A stretch of 64,000 nt of DNA from Candidatus Sacchlamyda saccharinae (GTDB lineage Bacteria > Chlamydiota > Chlamydiia > Chlamydiales > Rhabdochlamydiaceae), in NCBI GenBank assembly GCA_030408505.1, contig JAUHQI010000002.1:34674-98673 (forward strand), given 5' to 3'. Below the pieces are notes generated by a model. That model was not told where the DNA came from. It saw only the letters and a program-made list of their open reading frames with translations, and did no database searches. The position numbers and the translations under genes were made by a program. Numbering within the stretch: the stretch's first letter is position 1; every line of letters begins with the position of its first letter. This document shows positions 37,141 through 57,377 of this stretch, one piece after another.

Positions 37141-37214
37141 TGCGGTTACCAAGATTTGAACTTGGGACCTCAACATTATCAGTGTTGCGCTCTAACCAAC
37201 TGAGCTATAACCGC
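37141..37214 (-). tRNA. tRNA-Ile (anticodon GAU)
   Basis: The reverse complement reads GCGGTTATAGCTCAGTTGGTTAGAGCGCAACACTGATAATGTTGAGGTCCCAAGTTCAAATCTTGGTAACCGCA. It folds as a cloverleaf with anticodon loop CTGATAA. No encoded CCA. Confidence 0.93.
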
Positions 37215-37284
37215 GAGGAATGTGTAATTAAAAACAAAGGTCCCGTCGTAGGCACGAAAGATCGTACCTACACCGGGCTAGTCA

Positions 37285-37357
37285 TGGAGGCTAGGAGAGT
37301 CGAACTCCTGACCTTCTGAATGCAAATCAGACGCTCTACCAACTAAGCTAAGCCCCC
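37285..37357 (-). tRNA. tRNA-Ala (anticodon UGC)
   Basis: The reverse complement reads GGGGGCTTAGCTTAGTTGGTAGAGCGTCTGATTTGCATTCAGAAGGTCAGGAGTTCGACTCTCCTAGCCTCCA. The G3:U70 identity pair is present and the anticodon loop is TTTGCAT. Confidence 0.93.
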
Positions 37358-37449
37358 ACAAACCATGCAGCATATCGCTGCACCATTCCTTCCATGAGAA
37401 GGAAGAGAACAAGATACTAAATTTTGCTGTTTTCTGCAATCGGTTCTGA

Positions 37450-40493: not shown

Positions 40494-41033
40494 TTATGAC
40501 AAGATTGCTCTTTTTTCATCTACTTGATAGTAATTACAGACAACTTCTGTGCCGGGATAGATGCCTTCTCTGAGAGGAACCATGCCTATCTTTTTGAGAA
40601 CGTTTTGCGAGGCTTTGTTTTCTTTGCGGACTGCGCCAATAATTGATGGCAGTTCTAGTTCTTCAAGGCCCCATCTGAGAAGTTCTTGAGCTACTTCTGT
40701 CGCATAGCCTTTTCCCCAAAATTTTTCGTAGAGCAGGTACCCTAGTTCTACTTCTGGGTTATCGTGTTGCATCGCAAGATGAATAAGTCCGCACCTGCCC
40801 ATAAACTCGCCTGTTTCTTTATCGAAAATGGTCAAAAAACCATGACCAAAGGCATCCCAGTGATTTTGGTGTTTTTTTAGAGATTCTCGCACTTGATCAG
40901 GAGCAGACGTGCTTCCATCTCTTATGTACCGCATTACACTTGGATCTGCGAAAAAGGGGAAGAGAAGCTCTTCCTCATTTTGGATCTTTTTGAGGAGTTT
41001 GAGGCGAGGAGTTGTCAGGATTTTTTGGCTCAT
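40494..41033 (-). CDS. GNAT-family N-acetyltransferase (RimJ/RimL-like)
   Basis: N-terminal LTTPRLKL and the acetyl-CoA block FWGKGYATEVAQELLRWG. Confidence 0.8.
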   Translation of the reverse strand: MSQKILTTPRLKLLKKIQNEEELLFPFFADPSVMRYIRDGSTSAPDQVRESLKKHQNHWDAFGHGFLTIFDKETGEFMGRCGLIHLAMQHDNPEVELGYLLYEKFWGKGYATEVAQELLRWGLEELELPSIIGAVRKENKASQNVLKKIGMVPLREGIYPGTEVVCNYYQVDEKRAILS

Positions 41034-41613
41034 TTTTCTGGTTGTTTTTTCCAGAGATCATACCAGCTGTGACAATATAGCGCATCCCATGTTCGACGGT
41101 CATGTCGATTAGTTTAACCTTAGATCTAGGCAATGTGAGGGTGACTCCCCCAATCTGGTAACTTAATGGGACGTAGACCGCTACTTCATCCTCTCCTGCA
41201 AAACCTTCCGGCAGATCGGAGAAATCCTCACGTGTGATGATTCCTAAAAAGCTCATTCCGTCGTGCTCAACGATGACCATTTTTCCTGCCTTTTCCTGAT
41301 CTTTAGGTTGGAAATAGCTCATCATATCGCCAATGGAGTTGTAGATGGTTTTGAAAAGGGGAATACGGGTAAAAATCCGATCCATGAGGCCTGTCATTTT
41401 CTGGATGATGAAGTTATTAACAATGATTCCAAAGAAAAAGATAAAAATGAATGCTACGAGAAGCCCCATCCCTGGGAAATAATGATCTCCTACTAGCCAT
41501 TCAAGTGGCACACGAAAAATACTTTCCAGTGTATCGAGTAGCCAAATTACGATCGCTAAACTGATCGCAACGGGTGCTAAGGCAATGAGTCCTCGTTTAA
41601 AAATTTTTCCCAT
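40975..41613 (-). CDS. DUF502-family membrane protein
   Basis: MGKIFKRGLIALAPVAISLAIVIWLL plus a second TM segment and a soluble C-terminal domain, the typical DUF502 layout. Its 3' end overlaps the GNAT start by 59 nt. Confidence 0.7.
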   Translation of the reverse strand: MGKIFKRGLIALAPVAISLAIVIWLLDTLESIFRVPLEWLVGDHYFPGMGLLVAFIFIFFFGIIVNNFIIQKMTGLMDRIFTRIPLFKTIYNSIGDMMSYFQPKDQEKAGKMVIVEHDGMSFLGIITREDFSDLPEGFAGEDEVAVYVPLSYQIGGVTLTLPRSKVKLIDMTVEHGMRYIVTAGMISGKNNQKNEPKNPDNSSPQTPQKDPK

Positions 41614-41674
41614 TAATCTTTAATATGGGTATACAATGGAAATATTGCAACCATTTCACAAACGGAGGAAGCAT

Positions 41675-41857
41675 ATGAGTGACACGCTTGTTGTCGTCAG
41701 TAAGGTAAAAACCTATGTCAAAAATAAATCGCAGATGAACACTTCTGCATCGGCCATGCCAGCGCTTACAAAAATTGTCGAAGAGGCATGTGAAAAGGCG
41801 ATTGAAAACGCGCGCAGAGATGGGCGCAAAACCATCATGGATAGAGACTTCGAGTGA
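41675..41857 (+). CDS. Small histone-fold (bacterial histone-like) protein
   Basis: 60 aa from the ATG at 41675, with GGAGGA 5 nt upstream. MSDTLVVVSKVKTYVKNKSQMNTSASAMPALTKIVEEACEKAIENARRDGRKTIMDRDFE has a helix-strand-helix pattern with the histone-fold RKT(I/V)xxxD signature. Confidence 0.65.
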   Translation: MSDTLVVVSKVKTYVKNKSQMNTSASAMPALTKIVEEACEKAIENARRDGRKTIMDRDFE

Positions 41858-43137
41858 AGACAACTTTCCACCCGATGAAGTGGGCCATCTGGGCTCTAGC
41901 TGCATTTTTCTACTTTTACGAGTATTTCTTGCGGGTAGCGCCCAGTGTAATGGTCCCAGAACTCATGAGCGCTTTTTCAGTCAATGCCACAGCCATTGGC
42001 GCTCTTTCCGCTTTTTATTTTTATATCTATGCCCCAATGCAACTCCCTGTTGGCGTATTGACAGACAAATATGGAGCGAGAAAACTTCTTGCTTTTGCCT
42101 CTGCAAGCGCAGGGCTTGGAGCGGTTTTGTTTGCTATTGCGACAAATTTCTGGGTGGCAGCGCTTGGCCGCATCTTGATGGGTGGCGCATCGGCATTTGG
42201 GTTCATTGGTCTTGTCTATATCTGCTCACACTGGTTTCCAGAAAATAAGAGAGGAATTCTAATAGGTCTTGGAAGCTCAATCGGAATGGTTGGCGCCGTC
42301 ATGGGCGAGGGTCCACTTCGCAAGCTAATCGATATTTTTGGATGGCGCTCTGCGAATCTCCAACTGGGAATTTTAGGACTGGTGATCGGAGCGATCATTT
42401 ATATTGTCGTGCGTAATGATCCACCAGAGATGGTGAAATATGACGAGAAGATGAAAAAAACTCCGCCTGCGCACATTCTCGAGAATTTGGGGATTGTTTG
42501 TAAGAATGGATACTCTTGGGTCATCGCTCTCTTGAGTCTTTTCATTATGCTTGCCACTCCTGGATTTGCTGGGCTTTGGGGCATCCCTTTTATCCATGCA
42601 ACATATGGGATCTCAATAGAACTTGCGGGCTACGCTGTTTCGATGATCTTTATCGGATGGGCAGTTGGTGGCCCTGTAATTGGGAAACTTTCTGACCACT
42701 TAGAACAAAAAAAACCTCTTTTGATTTTCTCATCTCTCCTGGGCGCGCTTTTGATGGCAGCTATTGTCTATGTCCCCAACTTGCCCCTTTTTGGATTATT
42801 TATCCTCTTCTTCTTTTTGGGTTTTGTCTCTGGTGCCCAACTTCTCACCTATAGCTACGCCATCGACATCAACCCAGAAAAAGTCAAAGCAACCGCTGCT
42901 GCGTTTACCAACTTCATCACTTATGTGGGCGGGGCACTTGTCCAACCTTTTGTCGGGTTTTTGCTCGACGCCAACTGGACAGGTAAGATGGAAAATGGGA
43001 TCCGAATCTATTCCCCAGATGCCTATAAAATTGCCCTGACCTGCTTTCCAGCCGCATTTCTTATCTCTGCGATTTTAGGAATATTCTTAAAAAAATCCCC
43101 GCATCCCAAAACAATTTGGCAGAAGTATTTTTCATGA
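41854..43137 (+). CDS. MFS transporter
   Basis: 427 aa with about 12 TM helices and an MFS loop motif (LTDKYGARK). GTG start overlaps the upstream stop. Confidence 0.8.
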   Translation: MKTTFHPMKWAIWALAAFFYFYEYFLRVAPSVMVPELMSAFSVNATAIGALSAFYFYIYAPMQLPVGVLTDKYGARKLLAFASASAGLGAVLFAIATNFWVAALGRILMGGASAFGFIGLVYICSHWFPENKRGILIGLGSSIGMVGAVMGEGPLRKLIDIFGWRSANLQLGILGLVIGAIIYIVVRNDPPEMVKYDEKMKKTPPAHILENLGIVCKNGYSWVIALLSLFIMLATPGFAGLWGIPFIHATYGISIELAGYAVSMIFIGWAVGGPVIGKLSDHLEQKKPLLIFSSLLGALLMAAIVYVPNLPLFGLFILFFFLGFVSGAQLLTYSYAIDINPEKVKATAAAFTNFITYVGGALVQPFVGFLLDANWTGKMENGIRIYSPDAYKIALTCFPAAFLISAILGIFLKKSPHPKTIWQKYFS

Positions 43138-44090
43138 GAGCGATGGTTCTAGAAGAGGCAAATAAGCCTCTAACAATGCAAGATCTTCTCCTCCCTTCCC
43201 CTGGAGAAGGTGAAGTGCTCATCAAGGTCAAAGCTTGTAGTGTTTGCCGCACAGATCTACATATTTATGCTGGCGAGCTAAAAGAGCCCAAACTTCCGCT
43301 GATCATGGGTCATCAGATTGTTGGAACTATAGAGGGAGAAGATTCACTTGTGGGTGTACCTTGGCTTGGGAAAACTTGTGGAGTTTGCCCTTACTGCAAA
43401 AGAGACGAAGAAAACTTATGTGATGACCCCACATTTACCGGATATACGATCAACGGCGGCTTTGCTGAGTACGTAGTGGCAAACAAAGCGTTTGTCTTCC
43501 CCATTCCAGATGGCTACTCAGAGATCCAAGCAGCTCCCCTTCTCTGTGCTGGGATGATTGGGTACCGCTCACTCAAGATGGTAGAGACGGCAGAAAAAAT
43601 CGGCTTCTATGGTTTTGGGGCCGCAGCGCATCTTTTGATCCAAGTAGCAAAATACCAGGGTAAACAGGTCTATGCCTTCACGCGCAAGGGCGATACTAAA
43701 ACACAGGAAAAAGCCTTAGAGCTCGGAGCTGTATGGGCGGGCGATTCTGAGACCAAGGCTCCCGATGAGCTCGATGCAGCCATTCTCTTTGCACCAGTGG
43801 GCTCTCTTGTGCCAACAGCTCTAAGAGCGGTCCGCAAAGGGGGCATTGTCGTCTCAGCTGGAATTCATATGAGCGATATCCCTAGCTTCCCCTACTCGAT
43901 TCTCTGGGGAGAGCGCGTTCTTCGTTCTGTGGCTAATCTCACTAGAAAAGATGGGGAGGAATTTTTAGCCTTAGCCCCTAAAATCCCCATTCAAACAGAG
44001 GTCACGACCTACCCTTTAGAAAAGGCCAATGAGGCACTTCGTGATCTAAAAGAAGGAAACATTTCTGGCTCTGCAGTGATTATTCCTTAG
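43134..44090 (+). CDS. Zinc-binding alcohol dehydrogenase family protein
   Basis: GHQIVGT catalytic-zinc region, structural-zinc Cys cluster CGVCPYCKRDEENLC, and Rossmann GFGAAAH. ATGA overlap with the MFS gene. Confidence 0.85.
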   Translation: MRAMVLEEANKPLTMQDLLLPSPGEGEVLIKVKACSVCRTDLHIYAGELKEPKLPLIMGHQIVGTIEGEDSLVGVPWLGKTCGVCPYCKRDEENLCDDPTFTGYTINGGFAEYVVANKAFVFPIPDGYSEIQAAPLLCAGMIGYRSLKMVETAEKIGFYGFGAAAHLLIQVAKYQGKQVYAFTRKGDTKTQEKALELGAVWAGDSETKAPDELDAAILFAPVGSLVPTALRAVRKGGIVVSAGIHMSDIPSFPYSILWGERVLRSVANLTRKDGEEFLALAPKIPIQTEVTTYPLEKANEALRDLKEGNISGSAVIIP

Positions 44091-45861
44091 AGAAATTCCC
44101 CGTCTTTGCATCGACGAGTTTGAGAAGGTCTTCTGATTTCATGGCGATCTGCTCTTGTGAGAGTCCACAATTGAAAACGACATTGGGATGCTCAAGCACT
44201 TTTTCATCGAAATAGGTTTCGAGATTCAAGAGATTCCCAAAGGGGGGTACCCCTCCGATGATCAGACCAAACCGCTCTTTGATAACAGCAGGGTCTTCAA
44301 ATTCGCATTTCTCTCCGACTGCCGCCGCAATGGCTTTCATATCCATTTTTAAGTGGACAGGGAGGTTGAACTGGTAATTTTTCTTCGTCTTTTTCCCTTT
44401 TAAAATGAGCGCTTTGATGCCACCTTCAGATGACTCCTCTCCATCCACGATATGCTCAAATTCCATGTCGTGTTGGTTTAGAAGGCGGATAATTTCATTG
44501 CGGATGTTCTCACCGCCGAAGACGATATTGGCTTTGATCCGATTGCCCGCAATGCGTTTGGGGTCAGAGGGGAAAAGAGATGCTTCGCGGATATTCTTTA
44601 AGCCGAGCATCGTCATGGTCAGACGTTCGAGCCCCATCCCGAAACCGCCATGGGGAGGCATGCCGTATTTAAATACGGTCAAATAATCCTGAAAATTCTC
44701 AGGATCCATCCCCTTAGACTCAATGCCAGCGACCATATCCTCATAGGTATGGCACCTCTGTCCGCCGGAGGTGATTTCCACCCCATTACAAAGTAGATCG
44801 AACGTGTTTGTAAGTTCTGGATTCTTCTCATTCACAAATGAGTAGAAGGGGCGCTTTTCTTTTTTCCAGTCAGTGATAAAAATGAGATCTGTGCCGTGCT
44901 CTTCTTTTGCATATTTACAAAGCTCCCGCTCAGCAGATGGGCTTAGGTCGGGCTCATTTCGCTCGTCTACGCCTGTTCGCTTGAAATAGAGCTCTTGTGC
45001 TTCTTCAAAGGTGACTCTAGGAATCGAAACGTCTTTTGGGCATTGAATCCAATTGGATCCTAAAGTTTCTAGTTCTTGTTTGCAGTGGGTTTGCACATGA
45101 TCTGTAATGGCCTTGATGCACCCTTCTTGAACATCGAGAACATCGTGCCAATGGTCAAAAAAGCCCATCTCAAACTCAAACTGCTTGCCTTCTGACAAAT
45201 GCCGGGGCGTATGGGAGGGTTCCGCTCGGAAAAAGGGCATCAGAGCAAAGACCCGCTCGTTGACCCCTACCATGATCTGTTTGTAAAGTTGAGAGCTCTG
45301 CGCAAGCGTTGCCGTGTAACCAAAATAGTCGACATTGAAAAATTCAGCGCCCCCTTCAGATGAGGCTCCCAGAATGTTGGGAGCAAAATACTCTTTAGCC
45401 TCCACAACATCGTGCATGTATAGACGGAAAGCATGGACCATCTCTGCCTGAACATTAAACACTGCCTGGATCTTTTGATTGCGAAGAGCAATAGAGCGGT
45501 GATCAAGGATAAATTCTAAATCGGAAGGGATTTCGGGCTTGTAGTACTCAATTGGAGGTGGCTCACTCACTGCCACCTCAACTTCAATCTTTGGCTCTAA
45601 TACTTCTACGCCAAGCCCCGCTTGCTCAGATTTGACCGGCTTGCCCTCGACAGAGAGAACACTCCCTGGAAACAGTCCGGCCAGTTTTTTAGCGTCTTCT
45701 TTATCTTCAACAATGACCTGAGCAAACCCTGTCCGATCACGGAGAATCAAAAAATTGAGTTTACCAAGCGAGCGGAAGGAAACGAGCCAACCTCGAAGCA
45801 AAACGCGGTTGTTTTCATGGGAGAGAAGTTGTGAAGAAAGGATCCGATTCATAGAGGCCAA
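44080..45861 (-). CDS. aspS: Archaeal/eukaryal-type aspartate--tRNA ligase fused to a C-terminal YbaK/ProX-like deacylase domain
   Basis: OB-fold N-terminus, class II motif 2 FRAEPSHTPRHLSE, SGGQRCH, and motif 3 GMPPHGGFGMGLERL. About 150 extra C-terminal residues follow, containing GLIIGGVPPFGN (a YbaK-family GG(V/I)(S/P)P(F/L)G-type motif). Confidence 0.8.
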   Translation of the reverse strand: MASMNRILSSQLLSHENNRVLLRGWLVSFRSLGKLNFLILRDRTGFAQVIVEDKEDAKKLAGLFPGSVLSVEGKPVKSEQAGLGVEVLEPKIEVEVAVSEPPPIEYYKPEIPSDLEFILDHRSIALRNQKIQAVFNVQAEMVHAFRLYMHDVVEAKEYFAPNILGASSEGGAEFFNVDYFGYTATLAQSSQLYKQIMVGVNERVFALMPFFRAEPSHTPRHLSEGKQFEFEMGFFDHWHDVLDVQEGCIKAITDHVQTHCKQELETLGSNWIQCPKDVSIPRVTFEEAQELYFKRTGVDERNEPDLSPSAERELCKYAKEEHGTDLIFITDWKKEKRPFYSFVNEKNPELTNTFDLLCNGVEITSGGQRCHTYEDMVAGIESKGMDPENFQDYLTVFKYGMPPHGGFGMGLERLTMTMLGLKNIREASLFPSDPKRIAGNRIKANIVFGGENIRNEIIRLLNQHDMEFEHIVDGEESSEGGIKALILKGKKTKKNYQFNLPVHLKMDMKAIAAAVGEKCEFEDPAVIKERFGLIIGGVPPFGNLLNLETYFDEKVLEHPNVVFNCGLSQEQIAMKSEDLLKLVDAKTGNFSKE

Positions 45862-56298: not shown

Positions 56299-56763
56299 TT
56301 ATCTTCTAGCTTCTCTTTGCCAGTAGACGAGACCAATGATGATGGGAATAAAGATATCAGCCCAGAAATAAACTCCAGCATTGCCAGAAGCAAAGTTGCC
56401 CGTTTCGGTCATATTGCGAATATGCCCAATAGCATCGCCCCAAAGCCAGATCGTATTTCCCAATAGGGCAGCAAAAAGAAAACTTCCTCTTAGCCAAAAG
56501 CTCAAGATGGCTAAAATACCAAAGCTAAGATTTGCAATCCCCACCTCAAATTGAAAAGGGCTACCAGGAGCCCACCCGATGAGGGCCGCTACACGGTCTG
56601 CGTAGAAAACATGCCCTATAAAATTGCCAATCCCGGTCAACCCAAGAGCAAACAACATCAGATAGCCGAGCAGGAGCTCAAGCGTTTTTTTGGGATATTT
56701 CTTTTGAAAGCCCCAGTGAAGGAAAAAAATTACCAGAGCCAAAACAAGAAAAACGACAGGCAT
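56299..56763 (-). CDS. Hypothetical small polytopic membrane protein
   Basis: 154 aa with four hydrophobic helices. No motif recognised. Confidence 0.5.
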   Translation of the reverse strand: MPVVFLVLALVIFFLHWGFQKKYPKKTLELLLGYLMLFALGLTGIGNFIGHVFYADRVAALIGWAPGSPFQFEVGIANLSFGILAILSFWLRGSFLFAALLGNTIWLWGDAIGHIRNMTETGNFASGNAGVYFWADIFIPIIIGLVYWQREARR

Positions 56764-56771
56764 ACAACCTC

Positions 56772-57377
56772 CTATAGGTCTTTGAAGGAATCCTCATCCC
56801 AATAGCTATCTCCATAGCTATAGAGCAATTGTGCTCCCTTCTTGATCCCCCGGTGACAAGCAGTAAAGATAATACGCGGCCCCCACTCAGAATAGTGTTC
56901 CCAAGCCACCACATTCGTCTTCTTATCCCCTTCCGAGCTGTGGTTCATAAAGCGACACCAATTTCCTGCCCTGACCCCATCAATCGAAAACTTTGGAAAT
57001 TCAGTGAACATAAACGTGCTGTCATTGTTTGGATCAACAAGTTTATCGGGCATCAGAATGCCCCCATACGAGTTTAAAACACTATAGGGGGGAATGTATT
57101 CCTTCGCAAAAACCCCATGTCCTATCTCTTTGCTAATATGGCGAATAGCCACCCGTTTAGTAAATGGGAGATCATCCCCGAGCTTGTGAATTTTTCTTAA
57201 AAGCGAGTCAAAGCGCTTTCTTCGAGAGACCGAGCCAACCTGCTCCATTTCATCTTGAAATTTCTTCCAGGCCCTCTCATATTCTTTTTTGTACTTAGGG
57301 TCGACAACAGCATCAGGCACATACTTAATCGGGGTGCTGATGCCAAAACGCTTTTTAAATGTGGGGTCTTCTTTCAT
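56772..57377 (-). CDS. SET-domain protein-lysine methyltransferase
   Basis: RFMNHSSEG (NHS motif), LLYSYGDSYW (post-SET Tyr region) and GHGVFA. The size and layout are like the chlamydial SET proteins (NUE/cpnSET class). Confidence 0.8.
   Translation of the reverse strand: MKEDPTFKKRFGISTPIKYVPDAVVDPKYKKEYERAWKKFQDEMEQVGSVSRRKRFDSLLRKIHKLGDDLPFTKRVAIRHISKEIGHGVFAKEYIPPYSVLNSYGGILMPDKLVDPNNDSTFMFTEFPKFSIDGVRAGNWCRFMNHSSEGDKKTNVVAWEHYSEWGPRIIFTACHRGIKKGAQLLYSYGDSYWDEDSFKDL

Follow-up and report, generated by a model that had tools for sequence, protein, structure and literature searches.

An unannotated histone-fold gene of HBb/Bd0055 type in the environmental chlamydia Candidatus Sacchlamyda saccharinae

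Introduction

HBb, also named Bd0055, is a 64-residue histone of the predator Bdellovibrio bacteriovorus for which structures with and without DNA exist (PDB 8FVX, 8FW7, 8CMP, 9EZZ and 9F0E). It is the "bacterial singlet" of Hocher 2023 and the "bacterial dimer" alpha3 histone of Schwab 2024, where the bacterial dimer is the only histone category defined by sequence clustering. The same study defines alpha3-truncated histones by an alpha3 of 3–4 residues together with a shortened alpha2. How does HBb act on DNA? According to Hu 2024, it bends DNA by ~84 degrees over 36 bp, compacts it about as much as HU does, binds non-specifically across the genome and forms no nucleosome-like particles, whereas Hocher 2023, from a crystal structure, placed HBb in straight end-on filaments. 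Thus, the DNA-binding mode of HBb is disputed.

Other prokaryotic histones share the truncated fold. The face-to-face (FtF) tetrameric histones HLp of Leptospira (9QT0) and HTkC of Thermococcus (9F2C) have the same short alpha3 and the same RxTxxxxD motif; 9QT0 carries the PDB label "DUF1931 domain-containing protein" and is cited as the HLp crystal structure in a 2025 paper on the Leptospira histone.

Chlamydiota are among the phyla in which bacterial dimer histones have been reported (Schwab 2024, Hu 2024). The table of Hocher 2023 lists Waddlia chondrophila ADI38622.1 (UniProt D6YWW1) as a bacterial singlet histone, together with Simkania negevensis CCB88880.1 (F8L7X8), a protein from a Waddliaceae MAG and proteins from several MAGs named "Chlamydiae bacterium"; the signature RKTVMDRDF is common to all of them. 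Hocher 2023 also counts Waddlia among the distantly related bacteria in which histone-fold proteins are highly expressed, and an alignment in the 2025 Leptospira histone paper sets the proteins of Waddlia and Simkania beside HBb. Here, we describe a member of this family in Candidatus Sacchlamyda saccharinae, identified in a 64-kb stretch of its genome that we call the window.

Results

The window contains, on the forward strand, an open reading frame at 41675–41857 (start ATG at 41675, stop TGA at 41855–41857), the translation of which matches exactly the 60 residues quoted in an earlier sequence-only reading of this DNA. As that reading had pointed out, the frame is preceded by a strong Shine-Dalgarno sequence, GGAGGA, which we located at 41664–41669, 5 nt from the ATG. 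Two relatives, loci L081 and L006, carry GGAGGA or AGGAG at the equivalent position. The protein has 183 homologues at E≤1e-3, and comparison with the gene of its closest relative (93% protein identity, 86% nucleotide identity) revealed 20 codons with only synonymous differences and 4 with non-synonymous ones, which clearly marks the frame as being under purifying selection. Thus, given its homologues, its strong Shine-Dalgarno sequence and the selection acting on it, 41675–41857 is a real and presumably expressed gene and not a chance open reading frame.

Could translation start further upstream? Starting at another ATG of the same frame, at 41636, would yield a 73-residue product with a 13-residue extension, and the sequence-only reading had considered that this longer frame might be the real gene and belong to another family. 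The 73-residue form has a weak match to Utp25_C (E=0.0084), far below the cut-off. When we aligned the protein with 39 homologues, however, the great majority of the 40 sequences started at the Met of an MSDT or MSET motif, and the N-terminal extensions of the few longer gene calls were unrelated and unconserved. The extension being unconserved and the Shine-Dalgarno sequence being placed for the ATG at 41675, the 60-residue start is the correct one, and the NCBI gene call likewise has 60 residues. Because the protein is also strongly conserved, with mostly synonymous divergence and an unambiguous family assignment, the chance that the real gene is the 73-residue frame, or that the frame is spurious or of another family, is negligible.

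The 60-residue protein is identical to MDN3505733.1, deposited as "hypothetical protein P0S96_00700"; the MAG behind this record bears the label Simkaniaceae bacterium / Candidatus Sacchlamyda saccharinae. An aspartyl-tRNA synthetase (AspRS) encoded three genes downstream is 100% identical to MDN3505736.1, which lies with MDN3505733.1 on one contig of 412,933 bp. In NCBI taxonomy the organism belongs to Ca. Rhabdochlamydiaceae (Chlamydiota, Parachlamydiales). For the histone, the AspRS and a SET-domain protein discussed below, the nearest relatives that carry a name are nearly all chlamydial MAGs, so the attribution to a chlamydial genome, made from the letters alone, was correct; the source is an environmental chlamydia and not a Chlamydia species. 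Among the matches listed in a scan of genome contigs, the best was 77% identical.

To which protein family does the gene belong? A phmmer search of the PDB returned the Bdellovibrio histone HBb/Bd0055 (8FVX and 8CMP) as the top match, with E=1.3e-15, 51–54% identity and a gapless alignment over residues 1–59. With a family profile built from the 40-sequence alignment, the HBb match improved to 2.8e-24. The next matches were other prokaryotic alpha3 histones, and in the profile search the only proteins besides HBb at E≤0.01 were HTkC (9F2C), HLp (9QT0) and HmvA (8BDK). HTkC and HLp, found at 1.2e-4 and 1.3e-4 when the single sequence was the query, reached 5.6e-9 and 4e-7 with the profile. The sequence-only reading had likened the protein to the Bd0055 singlet type, in agreement with these searches.

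Similarity to nucleosomal histones was marginal. The archaeal histone HMfA was matched in the PDB at E=0.054, and in a Pfam/NCBIfam scan of the 60-residue protein histone profiles were the sole matches, each below its curated cut-off: CBFD_NFYB_HMF (PF00808) scored 16.3 bits against 21.4, Histone (PF00125) 15.1 bits against 26.4 (E=0.029) and archaea_histone 28.2 bits against 50. A Pfam search had been proposed in the sequence-only reading as a check on the histone fold; the DUF1931 family, also proposed there, was absent at E≤10. As this DUF1931 result and the single 60-residue fold indicate, the protein is not a DUF1931 doublet, and its match to the DUF1931-labelled entry 9QT0 is the HLp match given above. 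The sub-threshold scores of the family also explain why the deposited record reads "hypothetical protein".

We then modelled the monomer with AF2 from the alignment. The model, of moderate confidence (mean pLDDT 69.7, pTM 0.41), predicts helices at residues 2–19, 27–49 (alpha2, 23 residues) and 54–56 (alpha3, 3 residues). This alpha1-L1-alpha2-L2-short alpha3 layout agrees with the alpha3-truncated histones, and the predicted 3-residue alpha3 sets the protein apart from nucleosomal histones, in which alpha3 has its full length of ~10 residues. A Foldseek search of the model against the PDB gave four matches, all of them HBb entries (probability 0.95–0.96, TM ~0.53). Their E-values were weak (0.045) because the query is a tiny protein, the 60-residue monomer of an obligate dimer. 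Database matches, motifs, predicted layout and fold comparison therefore all agree on a histone fold, the opposite outcome, a failure of profile searches and structure prediction to find one, having been named in the sequence-only reading as grounds for rejection.

Consistent with this assignment, loop 2 contains the RKTxxxD / RxTxxxxD motif as R51-K52-T53-I54-M55-D56-R57-D58. The sequence-only reading had singled out an RKTIxxxD histone motif, and its R, K, T and D residues proved invariant in the family: across the 40 sequences, S9, K10, K12, K16, R51, K52, T53, D56, R57 and D58 do not vary. S9-K10 is the bacteria-specific motif of Hocher 2023. Schwab 2024 describes conserved alpha1 lysines at logo positions 11, 13 and 17, which we equate with K10, K12 and K16 by our own mapping, with an offset of one. 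The window protein and HBb have in common S9-K10, K12, K16, N22-T23-S24, R51-K52-T53 and R57-D58, a short alpha2, an alpha3 of 3–4 residues and the same length class (60 and 64 residues). In the molecular dynamics of Hu 2024, the ten top DNA-contact residues of HBb are N22, R57, S9, T53, T8, S24, K10, K12, K52 and K16; nine of these ten are identical at the same positions in the window protein, the exception being T8, replaced by V8. The window protein also ends at F59-E60, without the last few residues of HBb.

An alternative within the same alpha3-truncated superfamily is that the protein is an FtF tetrameric histone like HLp or HTkC, with ~50–60 bp of DNA wrapped around the tetramer, and both of these proteins are indeed detectable relatives. 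With the family profile, however, HBb is matched at 2.8e-24 and the best of the other categories at 5.6e-9, and the HBb match exceeds the FtF matches by more than ten orders of magnitude. The residues that mediate dimer-dimer contacts in FtF histones, R48 and N52 of the logo, precede the RxT arginine by 6 and 2 residues; the equivalent positions are N45 and D49 in the window protein and S45 and D49 in HBb, so that neither protein has the FtF tetramer residues. Since R48/N52 are replaced and the FtF matches are much weaker, a dimer is expected and not a DNA-wrapping tetramer, and we regard the FtF reading as highly improbable. Thus, its HBb-like residues and N45/D49 at the FtF positions place the protein among the bacterial dimer histones.

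It has also been documented that chlamydiae deliver chromatin-directed proteins to the host nucleus (NUE and the SWIB protein Wcw_0377). Because the organism lives inside eukaryotic cells, the protein might be such a secreted effector, a histone mimic acting on host chromatin. Several observations speak against this: (i) among the matches listed, the closest relatives outside Chlamydiota come from Bdellovibrionota, Planctomycetota, Myxococcota and others that are not intracellular in eukaryotes, at 55–68% identity; (ii) the DNA-contact residues of HBb, a nucleoid protein, are conserved; (iii) the N-terminus is a conserved, structured alpha1 DNA-binding helix and not a variable, disordered secretion signal; and (iv) similarity to eukaryotic core histones is as marginal as the Pfam Histone score. 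We give the effector reading a very slim chance.

A single histone fold occupies the protein, no other domain was matched, and most homologues have 60–64 residues. In a profile search of 1.84 billion representative sequences, clustered at 50% identity, 938 clusters scored E≤1e-3 and 472 reached E≤1e-10; the HBb-type family is not rare. The strongest profile matches in this library, which lies outside the window, were natural tandem HBb-like doublets of 126–149 residues, and in one 274-residue protein of the library two HBb-like folds come after an N-terminal region rich in Cys. Thus, fused pseudo-dimers of the HBb family exist. Within the 64-kb window, searches with the family profile and with a Lys-rich Simkania paralogue (CCB88888.1, see below) found neither a second histone paralogue nor a counterpart of that protein.

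Is the histone gene tied to its neighbours? Upstream, it diverges from a DUF502 membrane-protein gene (40975–41613, reverse strand), itself followed by a gene for a GNAT acetyltransferase of the Acetyltransf_3, RimJ/RimL-like type (40494–41033, reverse strand). These two genes overlap by ~59 nt, and an overlap of ~44 nt is kept in L081 and L082. The divergent intergenic region (41614–41663, forward strand, from the DUF502 start at 41613) is the presumed promoter region. An upstream comparison revealed two blocks in it, AATATGGGTATACA and AAATATTGCAAC, that L081 conserves and L006 retains in a looser form; a sigma-70 consensus scan upstream of the histone gene found no site, so that the promoter is assigned to this region by presumption.

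Downstream lies a major facilitator (MFS) transporter gene (41854–43137, forward strand; PF07690, E=4e-55). This gene, which is context and no part of the histone function, apparently begins with a GTG at 41854 that overlaps the histone stop (GTGA), giving the transporter the N-terminal extension MKTTFHPMKW, 7 residues of which precede an internal Met. The two nucleotide differences that L081 shows in this extension are both synonymous, and L006 has an ATGA overlap and the extension MKKTPHPMKW. No terminator-like site was found on the forward strand between the two genes, such sites occurring on that strand only within the MFS gene. The stop/start overlap and the missing terminator make co-transcription of the two genes with translational coupling likely in the subclade of close relatives, and the sequence suggests that in this subclade alone a nucleoid-protein gene may be coupled to a transporter gene.

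The overlap invites another reading, in which the protein would have a specialised regulatory task at its own locus, such as control of the MFS transporter operon, and would not be a global nucleoid protein, and the DUF502/histone/MFS arrangement is kept in L006 and L081–L083. An overlap with a downstream transporter gene is moreover unusual for a very highly expressed nucleoid-protein gene, which weighs against a nucleoid role. When we compared 83 related loci, however, the gene order DUF502/histone/MFS/ADH/AspRS was common only to those four close relatives; most of the 83 lack the window neighbours beside the histone gene, and MFS homologues in other related loci lie elsewhere. Thus, the histone gene has no broadly conserved operon partner. 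The protein is highly conserved across phyla whatever its context, and HBb binds the whole genome non-specifically. We therefore consider a local regulator improbable. A functional link between the GNAT gene and the histone was also considered and set aside, since the two genes co-occur only in L006 and L081–L083.

The sequence-only reading had drawn attention to a SET-domain lysine methyltransferase encoded 15 kb from the histone gene. The gene is real (56772–57377, reverse strand; 201 residues; PF00856, E=8e-12, above the cut-off), with orthologues in many chlamydial MAGs and, as nearest solved relatives, the eukaryotic EHMT1/2. Its suggested relation to the histone did not find genomic support: in none of the 83 related loci did tblastn detect a SET homologue closer than ~6 kb to the histone gene. 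NUE of C. trachomatis, the one chlamydial SET protein with a studied localisation, is type III secreted and methylates host histones, with no methylation of Hc1 in vitro, although an earlier study reported that a C. pneumoniae SET homologue methylates Hc1. C. trachomatis has this SET protein, but the species is absent among the histone-fold matches listed in the part of the Hocher 2023 table considered here; the genomes thus lend no support to a writer-substrate relation between SET protein and histone. With the two genes 15 kb apart on opposite strands, unlinked in the 83 loci, and with NUE a secreted effector, we set a functional link aside as unsupported. The SET gene is followed after 8 nt by a DUF6790 gene (154 residues, E=8.6e-50), and the pair (56299–57377, reverse strand) is a possible operon; in locus L023 a DUF6790 homologue lies ~1.5 kb from the histone gene.

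Several other features of the window were recorded. The AspRS gene (44080–45861, reverse strand) encodes an aspartyl-tRNA(Asp/Asn) synthetase in which a C-terminal YbaK-type tRNA_edit domain (PF04073) is fused to the class II core; this three-domain architecture recurs in all 120 homologues listed, whose source names, where given, are mostly chlamydial. An FtsH homologue of 912 residues (4018–6756, reverse strand) matches FtsH profiles from residue 287 onward and hence has a long N-terminal extension. At 37141–37358 (reverse strand), tRNA-Ile(GAT) and tRNA-Ala(TGC) genes lie side by side, flanked by protein-coding frames. Such a pair is typical of the 16S-23S spacer; an Rfam scan of the 64-kb window found four tRNAs only and no rRNA.

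Discussion

The gene at 41675–41857 encodes an alpha3-truncated bacterial dimer histone of the HBb/Bd0055 type, and we propose that it would probably act as a general, HU-like DNA-bending nucleoid protein. We place the probability of this reading at roughly 0.8. One property of the protein weighs against a nucleoid role like that of HBb: with a pI of 8.9 and 11 Lys and Arg against 9 Asp and Glu, it is mildly basic.

What would the mechanism be? By analogy with HBb, two 60-residue chains, each made of alpha1, loop 1, a short alpha2, loop 2 and an alpha3 of 3–4 residues, would pair into a histone-fold homodimer, which would bind the DNA backbone and minor groove with no sequence specificity. The predicted contacts are S9, K10, K12 and K16 in the N-terminal part of alpha1, N22, T23 and S24 in loop 1, and K52, T53 and R57 in loop 2 and alpha3, with a pairing of R51 and D58 that may stabilise the loop. 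Similar to HU and to a single archaeal histone dimer, the homodimer would bend DNA and would not wrap it as a nucleosome does. Its most likely role would be that of an abundant general nucleoid-associated protein, acting beside any other chlamydial nucleoid proteins of the genome. The analysis itself establishes the gene, its family, the conserved DNA-contact residues and the lack of the FtF tetramer residues; dimerisation, DNA bending, nucleoid role and abundance are all transferred here from HBb. An abundant nucleoid role draws indirect support from Waddlia, named in Hocher 2023 for its highly expressed histone-fold protein, whose orthologue ADI38622.1 is 62% identical to the window protein over all 60 residues.

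The protein shares with HMfA/HMfB and the eukaryotic core histones a common helix-loop-helix-loop-helix ancestry, the RKT..D motif of loop 2 and the R-D clamp. It differs from them by sub-threshold profile matches, and because alpha2 is shorter and alpha3 truncated, the four-helix-bundle contacts of hypernucleosomes and nucleosomes are not available to it. Like the window protein, Hc1 and Hc2 (HctA/HctB) are small chlamydial DNA-binding proteins and have been proposed as nucleoid organisers, but they are unrelated in sequence and fold, having Lys/Ala-rich H1-like tails in place of a histone fold. In the 64-kb window, we found no credible Hc1-like Lys-rich frame, no Hc2 and no other chlamydial nucleoid protein.

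A more elaborate possibility is that the histone is not a constitutive HU-like bender but a stage-specific chlamydial chromatin protein, for example of the nucleoid of replicating reticulate bodies, where it would oppose condensation by Hc1/Hc2, and that its lysines may be modified by the SET or GNAT enzymes. Contrary to the predator Bdellovibrio, the organism here lives as an obligately intracellular symbiont and passes through a developmental cycle. Given the lack of conserved gene linkage in the 83 loci and the secretion of NUE to the host, we hold a stage-specific, modified histone to be very unlikely; if true, it would constitute a bacterial histone-plus-writer system.

Among the closest described counterparts of the HBb-type protein are the chlamydial orthologues, namely the Waddlia and Simkania proteins together with Waddliaceae MBB64678.1 and Chlamydiae bacterium PIS01704.1. 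All share with it the phylum, the family and the C-terminal signature MDRDF; the copy studied here differs in its lineage (Ca. Sacchlamyda saccharinae, Ca. Rhabdochlamydiaceae) and in being annotated "hypothetical protein". Simkania also has a second paralogue, CCB88888.1, of 77 residues, whose N-terminal tail is rich in Lys and Ala and recalls the tails of eukaryotic histones or H1-like proteins. C. trachomatis, Protochlamydia amoebophila and Parachlamydia acanthamoebae were among the genomes searched in Hocher 2023 and are absent among the matches listed in the part of the table considered. With Waddlia, Simkania and the present lineage positive and those three not among the matches listed, this partial view of the table hints at a patchy distribution in the phylum.

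In the sequence-only reading, chlamydiae were said to be known for Hc1/Hc2 and not for proteins with a histone fold, a view that was out of date, since Hocher 2023, Schwab 2024 and Hu 2024 all report them. Because reports of the HBb family in environmental chlamydiae go back to 2023, the gene adds an unannotated member to a family already known and does not amount to a discovery. For the field this changes little, as the members in Chlamydiota were catalogued in 2023–2024 and crystal structures of the prototype exist with and without DNA. The practical value of the finding lies in annotation: the same mislabelling as "hypothetical protein" probably occurs in many chlamydial MAGs.
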